Assembly (NCBI GenBank): GCA_024231215.1
Contig: JAAEQR010000195.1
Coordinates: forward strand, 363,724-427,723
Source of the DNA: PVC group bacterium
Lineage (GTDB): Bacteria; Omnitrophota; Gorgyraeia; B26-G9
Direction of reading: 5' to 3'
Length of the DNA stretch: 64,000 nt
The position numbers were made by a program, and so were the translations under genes. The stretch's first letter is position 1; every line of letters starts with the position of its first letter. The notes below the pieces were generated by a model, which saw only the letters and a list, made by a program, of their open reading frames with translations, was not told the DNA's origin and ran no database searches. Shown piece by piece: positions 1,733 to 50,283 of the stretch.

Positions 1733-2479
1733 ATGAATGAAAGAACAGATGATACCTGGAGAGATTCTGAAAACGCGAAAAAATTTCTTAATGAGATTGC
1801 CGGAGCAATCCCGCTTGAAGCAGAACAACTTGATATAATGATGCGTCTTATTTCTGAACAAAGAAATGAGGTAAGATCAATACTTGATATTGGCTGTGGT
1901 AATGGGATATTGGCTTCAGTTATCCTTAATCAATATTCAAATGCAAGAGCTACTTTACTTGATTTTTCTGATACTATGCTTGATGCTGCCAAAGAAAAGC
2001 TTTCGTCTTATAAAGATCAGGTGAGATATGTAAAATCTGATTATGGGGATGAGGCTCTGGATAAAAAATTAGCTGATGAAAAAGCAAGTTTTGATGTAAT
2101 TGTTTCACGGTTTTCTATCCATCATCAGTCGGATGAACGTAAATATCAAGTCTATCAGGAAATATTTAATTTACTGGCTCCAAATGGAATTTTTATAAAT
2201 ATCGAACATGTTGCATCTAAGAGTAAATGGGTAAATAAGATATTTGAAAAATATATGATCGACTATATGTATGACTCGTATAATAAGAAAGGCAAAGTTA
2301 AAAGCAGAGATGAAATTGCTCAGGAGTTTCGCGGCCGACATGATAAAGATGCAAATGTTATAGCTTTGGCTGAAAAACAATGTGCCTGGCTTAGTGAGAT
2401 AGGTTTTGTTGATGTTGATTGCTATTTCAAAGTTTTTGAAATAGCAATATTCGGTGGAAGGCGCTTGAATAGATCGTAA
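1733..2479 (+). CDS. class I SAM-dependent methyltransferase
   Basis: ILDIGCGNGIL motif I, acidic motif II LLDFSD. Confidence 0.8.
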   Translation: MNERTDDTWRDSENAKKFLNEIAGAIPLEAEQLDIMMRLISEQRNEVRSILDIGCGNGILASVILNQYSNARATLLDFSDTMLDAAKEKLSSYKDQVRYVKSDYGDEALDKKLADEKASFDVIVSRFSIHHQSDERKYQVYQEIFNLLAPNGIFINIEHVASKSKWVNKIFEKYMIDYMYDSYNKKGKVKSRDEIAQEFRGRHDKDANVIALAEKQCAWLSEIGFVDVDCYFKVFEIAIFGGRRLNRS

Positions 2480-2504
2480 GAATGCAAGGTAGTTAATAGG
2501 CTTT

Positions 2505-2601
2505 TTACCATACAAAAGTAAGTTGCGTGCAGTTTGTATAGTAAGTTTTGTTTGACAAATGTTACCATACGTTATATGTTAATAATATATTTGTATGGTA
2601 A
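2505..2601. promoter_or_regulatory. two operator-like inverted repeats, each TTACCATAC-N22-GTAT(G/A)GTAA, over a TTGACA -35-like box
   Basis: IR1 2505-2513/2536-2544 (one mismatch); IR2 2562-2570/2593-2601 (perfect); TTGACA at 2552-2557; RBS AAGGAG 2606-2611 before ATG 2620. Confidence 0.5.
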
Positions 2602-2619
2602 TATTAAGGAGATCGTAGA

Positions 2620-2937
2620 ATGGCAATTAAAGCTGTTTTAAGGGAGGAGTTGAATAATTCTTTGCGTATTAAGAAAAAATACGAAGAAGAACTAAGCAAG
2701 CTCCCACTAGGAAGTCTGATCAAGAAAAAAATCAAGAAGTATGAATATTATTACATAGTTCTAAGGCAAAAAGGCAAAGTAAAATTTATCTATAAAGGTA
2801 AAAAAATTACCCCCAAAATTATTAAGCAATATAATGACGCAAAACAGTTAAGGGCAAAATATCGTAATCTATTATCAAAAGTAAAAAAACAAATCAAATT
2901 TTTAAGGAGCTCATTGCGTGGAAAAGAAGCCATCTGA
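2620..2937 (+). CDS. small lysine-rich hypothetical protein (105 aa)
   Basis: ORF with strong RBS; KKKIKKYEYYYIVLRQKGKVKFIYKGKK; no family recognised. Confidence 0.55.
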   Translation: MAIKAVLREELNNSLRIKKKYEEELSKLPLGSLIKKKIKKYEYYYIVLRQKGKVKFIYKGKKITPKIIKQYNDAKQLRAKYRNLLSKVKKQIKFLRSSLRGKEAI

Positions 2938-3107
2938 TTTTTGCCAAGAAGTATTAAATAGGTTTTATAACGAAGGAATGCTTCGAGATGTATTCCTTAA
3001 AGGTTAGAATTTTAAGAGTAAATAGCTAACTATATTGAATTATGGGAGAAATATGAAAAAGATTTGGATAAATGAGAAAGTTTATAAGTTGTGGAGAAAA
3101 TTGACAA

Positions 3108-4109
3108 ATGTTTAAGAATATTTTAATTATTGGCCATTCTAATATAGGCGATGTTATTTATGATTTAGCGGTGATAACACCGTTGCATAAGGCATACCCT
3201 AAGGCGCAAATTTCTTTCTTTGTATCCTATCGCTGTCAAGATATTGTGAGCGGTTATGAAGGCATCAATAGAATTATTATTTTTGACAGGCACGGCAAAC
3301 ATAAAGGTTTTTTAAATCGTTTACGATTTACTGCAGATTTACGAAAGGAAAAATTTGACCTTGTCATTGTTCTCAGTAGCTCTCTAAATCATATATTTAT
3401 GGGCGTTCCTAATGTCTGGTGCGCCAGGAGACAGGCGTCCAAAAAATATAGTCATCCCGTTGATAAGTATATCGATCTTTTACATTTTCACGGAGTAAAT
3501 ACTGAGGATTTTTCTTTTAGGTTCAATCTAACGAAAGCTGATGACATTTTTTGGGAAGATTTTTCCAAAAAAAAGGGGATCCTTTCCAATGATACGCTGA
3601 TCGGAATTTTGCCACTTGCTGCATGGTCTCTTAAAAGCTGGCCGATAGAAAGATGGAATAAATTAGCAGAAATACTGAAAAACCAATATGGCATAAAGGT
3701 TTTGAATTTAGCGAAGATGCCCAATAGTGATTTGGGACGGCGTATCGCAAAAGAAATTTCTAAGGAGATCATTCCTGCTGATAAAACCAGCCTGTCTCAA
3801 GCAAAGGCTTTATTAAAGCGCTGCCAGTTATTTATCGGACCGGATTCTAGTCTGTTGCATTTATCAAGTTGCATGGGCGTTGAAACAGTTGGTTTATATG
3901 GCGCCACATCCAGTGAGTATTTTTATCCATACTTTCATCGCCATAATATTGTATTTCCTGAAAAAAAATTATCCTGCGTGCCATGTTATCCGGGCAAAAA
4001 ACCCGTTTGCTGTGCAAATGGAACAAAACGCAATTTTGGAGCGTGCATGGAAGAAATTTCAGTTGAAAGTGTTTTAGATGTTATTCAAGAAAAGTTGAAT
4101 TTGAAATAG
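3108..4109 (+). CDS. glycosyltransferase family 9 (ADP-heptose:LPS heptosyltransferase-like)
   Basis: N-terminal LIIGHSNIGDVIY... typical of GT9 heptosyltransferases; C-terminal GPDSSLLHLSSCMGVETVGLYG. Confidence 0.8.
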   Translation: MFKNILIIGHSNIGDVIYDLAVITPLHKAYPKAQISFFVSYRCQDIVSGYEGINRIIIFDRHGKHKGFLNRLRFTADLRKEKFDLVIVLSSSLNHIFMGVPNVWCARRQASKKYSHPVDKYIDLLHFHGVNTEDFSFRFNLTKADDIFWEDFSKKKGILSNDTLIGILPLAAWSLKSWPIERWNKLAEILKNQYGIKVLNLAKMPNSDLGRRIAKEISKEIIPADKTSLSQAKALLKRCQLFIGPDSSLLHLSSCMGVETVGLYGATSSEYFYPYFHRHNIVFPEKKLSCVPCYPGKKPVCCANGTKRNFGACMEEISVESVLDVIQEKLNLK

Positions 4110-4158: not shown

Positions 4159-4635
4159 ATGGCGGAAACATTGGGTAGCATGATTGACAAATTATCAATC
4201 AAATCAATAAGGGAGTTTTACATCAAGAAAATGGTGAGTTCTAAAAAAGGAAGTTTTTCAAAGGAACAGCTTCAGCAAAAACTTGATATTTTAAAAAAAC
4301 AAAAAAAAGCATTGCTCTTAGAGATTGAGCAGTTTATCGTTTGTATTCCTCAAAATGAAATGATTTTAAAAGATGAAAAATTAAAACTGTATAACAAGCC
4401 TCAGACAATGAATAGAATTGGAAAAATCAGTTCTTTATCACGAGGGATAGACGCCTTGACAAAGAAGAATCTTGAATTATGGCAGTTGGAGGATGAAGCA
4501 CGCAGAGAAGACGTTTCATTATCTTATATCGGTAAAGTAAAAAAGAAAATAGACGCTGCTAATCAGCAGCGAAACGATTTGATAGATAAAATTGATGAGC
4601 TTCTTGAAAAAAACAAAAAAAAGAAAAAGATGTAA
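4159..4635 (+). CDS. hypothetical coiled-coil protein with poly-Lys C-terminus
   Basis: ORF downstream of GT9 gene; no recognised motif. Confidence 0.5.
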   Translation: MAETLGSMIDKLSIKSIREFYIKKMVSSKKGSFSKEQLQQKLDILKKQKKALLLEIEQFIVCIPQNEMILKDEKLKLYNKPQTMNRIGKISSLSRGIDALTKKNLELWQLEDEARREDVSLSYIGKVKKKIDAANQQRNDLIDKIDELLEKNKKKKKM

Positions 4636-4956
4636 TGATTTTTAACCTCAGCAATTTGATGGTTTCGAGCCGCTTCTTTTTTGCCATTGAAGGTGTTTAG
4701 TGTTTTTTGATCGTTATATAGCTTCATGTTTTCGATGAGTCAGCTGGGATTCAAAAGTAAAAGGGGCCTTTTCTAAAAAGTTAATTTCTCAACTAACCCA
4801 ATAGAAAGTTTTACACCATTCCTCTTAACTGTTTTTAATCCTGAATTAACTTGATACACCGTTCGCTCTCGCTGGCACCCCAAGGGCAGGCATCGCCCCG
4901 ACTTCTACGAACTCCAATCTGTACATCCCGCCATTTTGTGCTACAATATACCCACT

Positions 4957-49104: not shown

Positions 49105-50283
49105 ATGAAAATTGCTTATCTTGATTGCTTTTCCGGAATTAGCGGAGATATGACTCTCGGTGCCTTTATCGATTGTGGAGTAAAGGTTGCTGATTTAAAA
49201 AAGCAGTTGGCAAAATTAAAAATAAAAGGTTTTGATCTTAAAGTACGAAGAGTAAAACGAGGTCATATTAGCGGGACTAAAGTTGATGTTATGGTAGGTA
49301 ATAAAGTTAGATTTTCTAACCTGAAACGCGTTTTTAGTCTTATTGATAAAAGTAGTCTTGATAAAGAGGTTAAACAGAGAGCAAAAGATGTTTATAGTAA
49401 CTTAGCTAAGGCTGAGGCTGCTGTACACAGAGAAAAGATAGATTCAGTACATTTTCACCAGCTAGGTGATTTAGATACAGTAATTGATATTGTCGGATGT
49501 GTGATTTGCATGAAATTGCTGGGTATAGAAAAAATGTATGCTTCGAGTCTTACTTTGGGAAGTGGTATGGTAAGGTGTGGTAAGGATATATTTCCTTTGC
49601 CTGCTCCGGCTACTTTGCAGTTGCTGAAAAAACGTTCTGTTGCGATGGATCCGGGGTTAAAACATGAAACGGTTACTCCCACTGGTGCGGCGATTATTGC
49701 GACTCTTACTCAGGAGGTAGTGGGGAGTTTGCCTATGAGGGTCATTAAGACCGGATATGGTGCCGGGACTTATCAGGATCCACAAATGCCGAATCTTTTA
49801 ACGGTCATAATTGCCGATGTAGAGAAGAAATACGTTCATGATACGGTGAATGTAGTTGCCGTGAATATCGATGATACATTACCGTTAAATTTTGAAATTT
49901 TATTTGAACGCTTATTTGCCAGTGGAGCTTTAGATGTATATACTGTCCCGGTAATGATGAAAAAGATGCGACCGGGTATATTATTGCATGTTTTAGCTGA
50001 GGATGGGTGCTTGGACAAGGTTTTGGCGCATATCTTCGAGGAAACGACGACTTTGGGGGTAAGGATTAGTAAGGTCTTTCGTCGGAAAATAGAAAGAAAA
50101 GTCTTGAATCTGAAGACTGATTATGGGATAATTGTGGGAGTAAAAATCGGATCTCTGGGAGGTCAGATAGTTAATATTGCCCCGGAATACGAAGACTGTA
50201 AAAAGATTGCTTTGCGAAAGAAATTACCTTTTAAGACTGTATATGATAGGGTGAAAGCACAGGCAGTAAAAAAATTTTTGTAG
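49105..50283 (+). CDS. larC: LarC-family nickel insertion protein (DUF111)
   Basis: MKIAYLDCFSGISGDMTLGA N-terminus typical of LarC. Confidence 0.75.
   Translation: MKIAYLDCFSGISGDMTLGAFIDCGVKVADLKKQLAKLKIKGFDLKVRRVKRGHISGTKVDVMVGNKVRFSNLKRVFSLIDKSSLDKEVKQRAKDVYSNLAKAEAAVHREKIDSVHFHQLGDLDTVIDIVGCVICMKLLGIEKMYASSLTLGSGMVRCGKDIFPLPAPATLQLLKKRSVAMDPGLKHETVTPTGAAIIATLTQEVVGSLPMRVIKTGYGAGTYQDPQMPNLLTVIIADVEKKYVHDTVNVVAVNIDDTLPLNFEILFERLFASGALDVYTVPVMMKKMRPGILLHVLAEDGCLDKVLAHIFEETTTLGVRISKVFRRKIERKVLNLKTDYGIIVGVKIGSLGGQIVNIAPEYEDCKKIALRKKLPFKTVYDRVKAQAVKKFL

Follow-up and report, generated by a model that had tools for sequence, protein, structure and literature searches.

In a 64,000-nt stretch of contig JAAEQR010000195.1 from a PVC group bacterium assigned to the Omnitrophota (in the following called the window, with all positions counted from its first base), two similar inverted repeats are located upstream of a gene for a lysine-rich protein of 105 amino acids. 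This arrangement raises the question of what the repeats are and which protein would recognize them. The favored answer, to which a probability of roughly 0.7 is assigned, is that they represent twin operators on the promoter of a horizontally mobile two-gene cassette, at which the small protein represses its own gene, and that this gene has become an orphan in the window.

Identification of the inverted repeats

By direct reading, the 9-nt cores of the upstream repeat (O1) were located at 2505-2513 (TTACCATAC) and 2536-2544 (GTATAGTAA), and those of the downstream repeat (O2) at 2562-2570 (TTACCATAC) and 2593-2601 (GTATGGTAA). This confirms the initial annotation of the locus, which described two copies with starts 57 bp apart and a gap of 22 nt in both, one perfect (O2) and the other with a single mismatch (O1). 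The 9-mers given there as arms are present, but the conserved arms are longer: according to a repeat finder (12-13 nt) and to the sequence logo over the homologous loci, they comprise 12 nt (GTTACCATACAA and TTGTATGGTAAC) and are 16 nt apart. With this definition, O1 spans positions 2504-2545, with arms at 2504-2515 (tTTACCATACAA) and 2534-2545 (TTGTATaGTAAg) and a 16-nt gap, and starts 25 nt past the stop codon of the preceding methyltransferase gene. O2 spans 2561-2602, as delimited by the repeat finder and the logo over 75 loci, and has its arms at 2561-2572 (GTTACCATACgt) and 2591-2602 (TTGTATGGTAAt).

When the window was searched with the 40-nt pattern and up to two mismatches, O1 and O2 were the sole matches, and none of 100 dinucleotide-preserving shuffles of the window contained any match. 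The 9-mer by itself is not enriched in the window (16 occurrences found, 14.7 expected), and therefore the paired architecture is the non-random part. Chance palindromes in AT-rich intergenic DNA would be in line with the ordinary frequency of the 9-mer, but this explanation is refuted by the shuffled sequences and by the conservation of the repeats over 80 loci described below.

Conservation of the repeats

The comparison set consisted of 80 homologous loci (81 with the window) taken from contigs of one genome per species and covering at least ten phyla. The groups represented are Omnitrophota, Desulfobacterota, Planctomycetota, Elusimicrobiota, Clostridia, Caldisericum, Aminicenantes, Kiritimatiellia, Lentisphaerae and Dehalococcoidia, among others. 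A repeat was counted if it had at most two mismatches and was located no more than 200 nt upstream of the small gene. In total, 74 of the 80 loci (75 of 81 with the window) carry at least one TTACCATAC-N22-GTATGGTAA repeat, and 57 (58 of 81 with the window) carry two copies. Among the exceptions, both copies are displaced to 263-322 nt upstream in L025, the gap is 23 nt in L038, and no upstream sequence is available in locus L069, while L076, L083 and L085 have variant arms. The initial annotation had proposed the orthologous intergenic regions as the place to check and had regarded absence of the motif from them as evidence against its reading. The opposite was found, since repeat, 22-nt gap and position are retained in the 74 loci across at least ten phyla although the sequences of the gaps have diverged.

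Within an operator, the gap is almost always 22 nt and only rarely 21, 23 or 24 nt, whereas O1 and O2 are 52-64 bp apart, most often 58 bp. Between the window and its closest relative, the proportion of synonymous differences (pS) of the small gene is 0.68, which places synonymous sites near saturation, and the ratio of nonsynonymous to synonymous substitutions (dN/dS) is 0.06. Because neutral sequence would have diverged at this distance, as the gaps did, the arms are considered to be under selection.

In 360 kb of flanking sequence around the 80 genome loci, additional sites were detected only in L025, where they are the displaced twin operators, and in L086, a Dehalococcoidia contig. The latter contains a second operator-like repeat with two mismatches at L086:73-112, followed by TTGACA and located 1.1 kb upstream of the cassette, which may belong to a second cassette. 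Furthermore, two other loci (L001:2785-2855 and L004:2787-2855) share about 70 nt of conserved non-coding DNA (ggctgccagatggttaccttataggatgactatgg...) upstream of O1, which is absent from the window.

Geometry of the promoter

A sigma-70-type promoter was predicted on the plus strand of the window by a promoter scan, with the -35 box TTGACA at 2552-2557 and the -10 box TATGTT at 2575-2580, matching 10 of 12 consensus positions with a spacer of 17 nt. The ribosome-binding site AAGGAG (2607-2612, plus strand) follows 7 nt 5′ of the ATG at 2620, from which the open reading frame (ORF) of the 105-amino-acid lysine-rich protein extends to 2937, as the initial annotation had stated. Its statement that the downstream copy overlaps the TTGACA box does not hold. 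The box is located between the two copies, just 3′ of O1 and 4 nt ahead of the left arm of O2, and O2 instead overlaps the spacer between the two hexamers, the -10 box and the predicted transcription start (about 2587-2589). The left arm of O2 lies within the spacer, and its right arm directly 3′ of the predicted start and 4 nt 5′ of the ribosome-binding site.

This register is preserved in the 75 loci, in which TTgaca is found at the same offset from O2 and TATaaT occupies positions +13 to +18 counted from the first base of the O2 9-mer. The consensus anchored on O2 reads TTgaca-N3-GTTACCATACAa.aTATaaTAtt....a.tTTGTATGGTAAC. Its information content is near maximal in the arms, the gap is free in sequence save for the -10 box, and the spacing between -35 and -10 is 17 nt. 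As the conserved TATAAT is inside O2 and 17 nt past TTGACA, O2 covers the -10 box and the transcription start, so that a palindromic site lies over the core promoter. The repeats are interpreted as a pair of operators, i.e., putative repressor sites, on the sigma-70-type promoter of the small gene.

Alternatively, the repeats could act as hairpins in RNA or single-stranded DNA, with attenuation, processing or termination of the upstream gene among the conceivable roles. The arms of O2 are able to pair, the RNA fold of 2495-2625 has a mildly lowered z-score of -2.5 against shuffles, and the variant loci described below change both arms jointly, as would be expected for a stem and for a palindromic protein site alike. 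However, judged by the conserved -35 and -10 boxes, neither O1 nor the left arm of O2 is part of the transcript, hairpin loops would have a length of 16-22 nt and contain promoter elements, and the mismatch of O1 in the window is a non-pairing C-A. In addition, no Rfam match at E ≤ 1 was obtained for 2300-3200, and the promoter and terminator scan reported no terminator-like site. A function as hairpins is therefore considered very improbable.

The two-gene cassette and the loss of its second gene

In the homologous loci, the small gene is overlapped by about 20 nt by a following gene encoding 227-229 amino acids, whose start is located at +296 to +302 from the ATG of the small gene. This second gene is of full length in 58 of the 81 loci, which thus have the two adjacent, overlapping small genes of a type II-like operon. 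Its product in L001 belongs to the Pfam family NTP_transf_8 (PF12281; 79.2 bits, E 5.6e-22, gathering threshold 26.3 bits) and retains the invariant GS and DxD motifs of polymerase-beta-type nucleotidyltransferases. The AlphaFold model of this enzyme has a mean predicted local distance difference test score (pLDDT) of 91.9. The best fold match is the toxin MenT1 of the M. tuberculosis MenAT1 system (Foldseek E 7.9e-5, probability 1.00, template modeling score of about 0.45-0.54), followed by ANT(2″)-Ia, TM1012 and LnuA. No family for the transferase was found in PADLOC, NCBIfam or PHROGs.

In the window, only a remnant of the transferase gene is present at 2918-3007 (plus strand). It starts with a GTG overlapping the end of the small gene, comprises 29 codons (VEKKPSDFCQEVLNRFYNEGMLRDVFLKG) and ends with a TAG; by tblastn, it is 69% identical to residues 1-29 of the L001 enzyme. 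The DNA homology between the window and L001 covers exactly 2505 to 3003, so that its first base falls on the left arm of O1 and its last one within the transferase stub. As only the 29-codon stub is left and no C-terminal remnant of the transferase follows it in the window, the small gene of the window represents the orphan first gene of a two-gene cassette. The remainder of the transferase gene was cleanly deleted ahead of a GT9 heptosyltransferase gene at 3108, and comparable truncations are also seen in L015, L028, L067, L082, L061, L047 and L016.

By analogy to known systems, the transferase is probably a toxin, which the small protein would hold in check. The recurrent loss of the enzyme gene with the small gene kept, the MenT1-like fold and the intact GS and DxD motifs lend indirect support to a toxin role. 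In a distant group of loci, a small-protein homolog with its own repeats is located beside a SWIM-domain ORF and a Polbeta/HepT-like gene pair, with no NTP_transf_8 gene (L093:1501-3228 and L094). According to this neighborhood, the small gene can associate with other nucleotidyltransferase-type modules.

Prediction of the DNA-binding protein

Several loci have repeats of the same layout with other arm sequences, and these differences follow the subfamilies of the small protein. The arms are TTACCCAAC/GTTAGGTAA in L076 and L083 and TTGTTATAC/GTATAACAA in L085. In subfamilies at 30-45% identity, whose loci were retrieved by exact protein look-up, the arms TTACACTAC (L091 and L098, two copies each), TTGTACTAC (L088), TTACCAAAC (L095-L097) and TAACCAAC (L092-L094) were found. 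The repeats are also retained where the enzyme is lost: in all 15 loci with a missing or truncated transferase gene, an operator with at most one mismatch is present, and in 13 of them it is perfect. Likewise, L092-L094 and L097 have kept their repeats without a transferase gene. Because the arms differ by subfamily within a conserved layout and the operators outlast the loss of the transferase, the small protein itself is most likely the binder and thus predicted to be an autorepressor.

The unusual substitutions of the proteins with variant operators are concentrated in the predicted beta-sheet. Residue 48, located in strand beta-2 beside the near-invariant R49, is L or F in proteins from loci with CATAC arms. 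It is K where the arms are of the CCAAC, CAAAC or ACTAC type, and Y for the two remaining types. In this small sample, the residue tracks the arm type, which is suggestive of a role in specificity.

The initial annotation had proposed a dimeric DNA-binding protein as the ligand of the repeats and had considered the lysine-rich product as possibly autoregulatory. Operator sites for a symmetric DNA-binding protein are supported by the conserved repeat, gap and promoter position together with arms that vary by small-protein subfamily, and autoregulation by this co-variation and by the sites kept where only the small gene survives.

A different binder, i.e., the transferase, a complex that requires both proteins, or an unrelated regulator, with a small protein that alone does not bind DNA, would agree with the lack of a recognized DNA-binding domain in the small protein. 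The same applies to the identical repeat in front of genes of other kinds, namely an AbiEi-family gene (L104) and DUF6933, Fic-like and Phd-like genes. On the other hand, operators are kept in all of the 15 loci mentioned that lost the transferase, a host regulator is unlikely to be common to at least ten phyla, and the arms co-vary with the subfamily of a protein that is strongly basic and, with 58-84% identity across loci, far more conserved than the transferase (40-55%). For these reasons, another binder is regarded as unlikely.

The third alternative to be weighed is that the repeats are recombination or boundary sites of mobile cassettes, comparable to integron attC sites or transposon ends. 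In favor of this, the left arm of O1 is the exact point at which the DNA homology between the window and L001 sets in. In addition, different genomes carry the cassette in unrelated neighborhoods, at times beside integrase or transposase genes, and copies of the same repeat stand between short cargo genes in array-like regions such as L172 and L130. Against it, both copies are located upstream of the gene instead of flanking it, the -35 and -10 boxes are in fixed register with O2 in 75 loci, and the arm sequence varies with the small-protein subfamily. Moreover, no recombinase is consistently adjacent in the loci inspected. The core consensus of attC sites is RYYYAAC...GTTRRRY, and the arms do not fit it. 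Recombination sites are accordingly judged to be quite unlikely, and operators bound by the small protein remain the preferred interpretation.

Family affiliation and predicted structure of the small protein

The gene at 2620-2937 (plus strand) is an intact ORF for a basic protein, a putative repressor and antitoxin, with 25 lysine and 7 arginine residues among 105 residues and an isoelectric point of 10.35. More than 600 close homologs with 65-84% identity were found in metagenome-assembled genomes, and a full HMMER scan resulted in 604 clusters at 50% identity. No significant family was assigned to the protein in Pfam, NCBIfam, PADLOC or PHROGs. With respect to DUF6788 (PF20586), the window protein has no match at E ≤ 1, and the gathering threshold of 27.2 bits is not reached: the family member P0400 scores 16.3 bits, and 12 of 42 diverse members match below the threshold, with a best E of 3.7e-4. 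Precomputed labels that name homologs DUF6788 rest on looser cut-offs. On the basis of these profile matches, a distant relationship to DUF6788 is the most fitting description of the family. The library searched contained no literature on DUF6788 or NTP_transf_8.

The AlphaFold model of the small protein (mean pLDDT 88.9) consists of a helix (2-27), three strands (32-38, 41-50 and 53-60) and a second helix (65-100). No recognized DNA-binding domain and no AbiEi or other helix-turn-helix match was detected in scans of the family libraries, and a search by sequence among solved structures yielded no relatives of the small protein or of the transferase. The three-stranded antiparallel sheet followed by a helix is compatible in topology with the arm-type DNA-binding domains of tyrosine integrases, such as the N-domains of lambda Int, Tn916 Int and P4 Int and the Pfam families Arm-DNA-bind_1 and Arm-DNA-bind_5. 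In contrast to these domains, the small protein has an extra N-terminal helix, which results in a prefoldin-like helical hairpin. Weak matches were obtained to Arm-DNA-bind_1 in 2 of 42 members (best E 9.6e-5) and to Arm-DNA-bind_5 in P0400 (E 0.0074), and weak Foldseek matches to 3jtz and 3rmp (E 0.36-0.79), none of them significant. The hhalign comparison with the N-domain of lambda Int likewise gave a non-significant probability of 0.56%.

Occurrence of the repeat in other promoter-like positions

An exact motif scan of the metagenome collection retrieved at least 120 stretches. Among the matches listed, 80 loci were fetched, which contain 104 motif matches, 63 of them at most 200 nt from a small-protein homolog and 41 not. 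A few of these 41 belong to family loci with longer leaders, and most of the others carry the full 12-nt arms. About 15 of the sites listed share the oriented consensus CTTGGCC-GTTACCATACAG-gap-TGTATGGTAAC-CGG.AAGGA, an element of about 80 nt (L116, L121, L130, L131, L144, L149, L156:1214, L159, L166, L172, L173 and L177). Here, TTGGCC adjoins the left arm in the manner of a -35 box, and several gaps contain, by visual inspection, a CATAAT-like box 17 nt downstream. The interpretation of these sites as an extended palindrome was rejected, since the flanks are asymmetric once the orientation is normalized.

The oriented element precedes DUF6933 genes (E 1.8e-45), an ORF for a cysteine-rich protein of 142-163 amino acids, and ORFs that were classified by eye as Fic-like, Phd-like and RhuM-like. 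It is often located beside truncated HsdM_N ORFs and sometimes recurs as if it separated cassettes. In L156, such a site lies 693 nt upstream of a genuine small-protein operator. Furthermore, an exact repeat at L104:4889-4928 is located 63 nt upstream of a gene for an antitoxin of the AbiEi_4 family (4185-4826, minus strand). The repeat is thus unexpectedly found in promoter-like positions ahead of unrelated defense-type genes. Two explanations are conceivable: the small protein may act on further promoters besides its own, or the site may also be used by another regulator. No literature on DUF6933 was found in the library searched.

A more far-reaching proposal follows from the first of these options. 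The small protein could be a free-standing mobile transcription factor with an unrecognized DNA-binding fold, composed of the prefoldin-like hairpin and the three-stranded sheet, that reads half-sites about 31 bp apart. Its operator GTTACCATACA-N18-TGTATGGTAAC would also control unrelated defense and toxin-antitoxin cargo (DUF6933, Fic-like, Phd-like, RhuM-like, AbiEi) located beside truncated ORFs for the type I restriction-modification methylase (hsdM), and orphan copies would be trans-acting regulators or anti-addiction modules and not decaying remnants. This proposal is tentative and, at present, rather doubtful.

The scan of a viral collection gave 14 matches, none with genes of the family and mostly in unrelated palindromes. 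In five viral loci (L221, L223, L225, L228 and L230) and in L165, the motif is contained in a longer phage-family palindrome (gcgaaagttaTTACCATAC...GTATGGTAAtaattttcgc), which looks unrelated because no family genes are nearby. In the window itself, an exact and a near copy of the arm, 10 nt apart, were found at 49565-49583 (GTATGGTAAGGTGTGGTAAGG); there is no partner arm at operator spacing, and the pair was taken as a chance occurrence. A perfect inverted repeat of 14 nt with a 3-nt loop (ATTGCTATTTCAAA and TTTGAAATAGCAAT) is located at 2418-2448 inside the 3′ end of the methyltransferase gene (1733-2479). It is not followed by a T-run and was not called by the terminator scan.

Comparison with known systems

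In classical type II toxin-antitoxin systems, the antitoxin autoregulates the operon, the genes overlap, palindromic operators cover the -10 box and the transcription start, horizontal spread is wide, and decay of the toxin gene leaves orphan antitoxins. For the cassette described here, autoregulation is predicted, and the other traits are common to it. It differs in that the usual antitoxin folds (ribbon-helix-helix, helix-turn-helix, AbrB and Phd/YefM) are absent from the small protein, in the unusually large distance between the half-sites, and in an upstream protein that is more conserved than the putative toxin, opposite to what is commonly seen.

Among described architectures, the promoter of Rv2827c-Rv2826c (MenAT4) comes closest. 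Its region from -1 to -131 contains two promoter-overlapping pairs of inverted repeats to which the antitoxin binds, resulting in negative autoregulation; the related AbiE promoter has one such pair (PMC7319586). The present cassette has likewise an antitoxin-type gene in front of a nucleotidyltransferase gene and two repeat pairs, located between -115 and -19 relative to the start codon. In MenAT4 and AbiE, the antitoxins are two-domain winged-helix proteins (COG5340/AbiEi), the toxins belong to DUF1814, and the repeats are 23 bp long with gaps of 3 or 13 bp (PMC7319586). Here, in contrast, a helix/three-strand/helix protein of 105 amino acids is combined with an NTP_transf_8 enzyme, 12-bp arms and a 16-bp gap. 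The partner enzyme has no DUF1814 (AbiEii) match in Pfam, and the small protein is neither of the COG5340/AbiEi winged-helix type nor MenA1-like. Since the antitoxins of those systems are winged-helix proteins and their toxins DUF1814 members, the cassette belongs to MenAT/AbiE by neither protein; it resembles operons of this kind in layout.

A further parallel exists to MenAT1 (Rv0078A/Rv0078B), as MenT1 is the closest toxin fold and a small, largely helical protein is encoded directly upstream in both cases. MenA1 is a protein of 68 amino acids whose two helices are arranged in a V, and a DNA-binding domain is not apparent in it (PMC10435456). However, no relation to MenAT1 was detected at the sequence level: the profile search of solved structures does not reach the MenT proteins, and the likeness is one of fold only.

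Proposed mechanism and relevance

In the proposed mechanism, each operator would be occupied by a symmetric oligomer of the small protein, in which every 12-bp arm is read by one head. The 9-bp cores of the arms are 31 bp apart from center to center, i.e., about three helical turns. The fixed gap within an operator, as opposed to the variable distance between O1 and O2, suggests that one protein unit measures both arms of one operator and that the units are loosely coupled. Occupancy of O2 would cover the spacer, the -10 box and the start and thereby block RNA polymerase, whereas O1, just 5′ of the -35 box, would serve as a second binding unit that adds affinity or cooperativity. The outcome would be negative autoregulation. 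In the window, where the transferase gene is deleted after codon 29, a self-repressing orphan gene for a regulator or antitoxin would have remained.

The annotation of the window can be refined accordingly, with 2620-2937 as the gene for a putative autorepressor/antitoxin that belongs to an NTP_transf_8 cassette and with a pseudogene remnant at 2918-3007. The arrangement is a familiar regulatory principle, the autoregulation of toxin-antitoxin operons, in a new form and on an uncharacterized, widespread cassette, which is present in hundreds of uncultivated bacteria from many phyla and both protein families of which are uncharacterized. The operator, near base-exact and with natural specificity variants, offers an experimental handle, since it provides defined probes, residues predicted to determine specificity, and natural controls. 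Should DNA binding by the small protein be borne out, a new fold would be added to the DNA-binding modules of antitoxins and repressors, and this would explain why orphan copies of its gene are retained.
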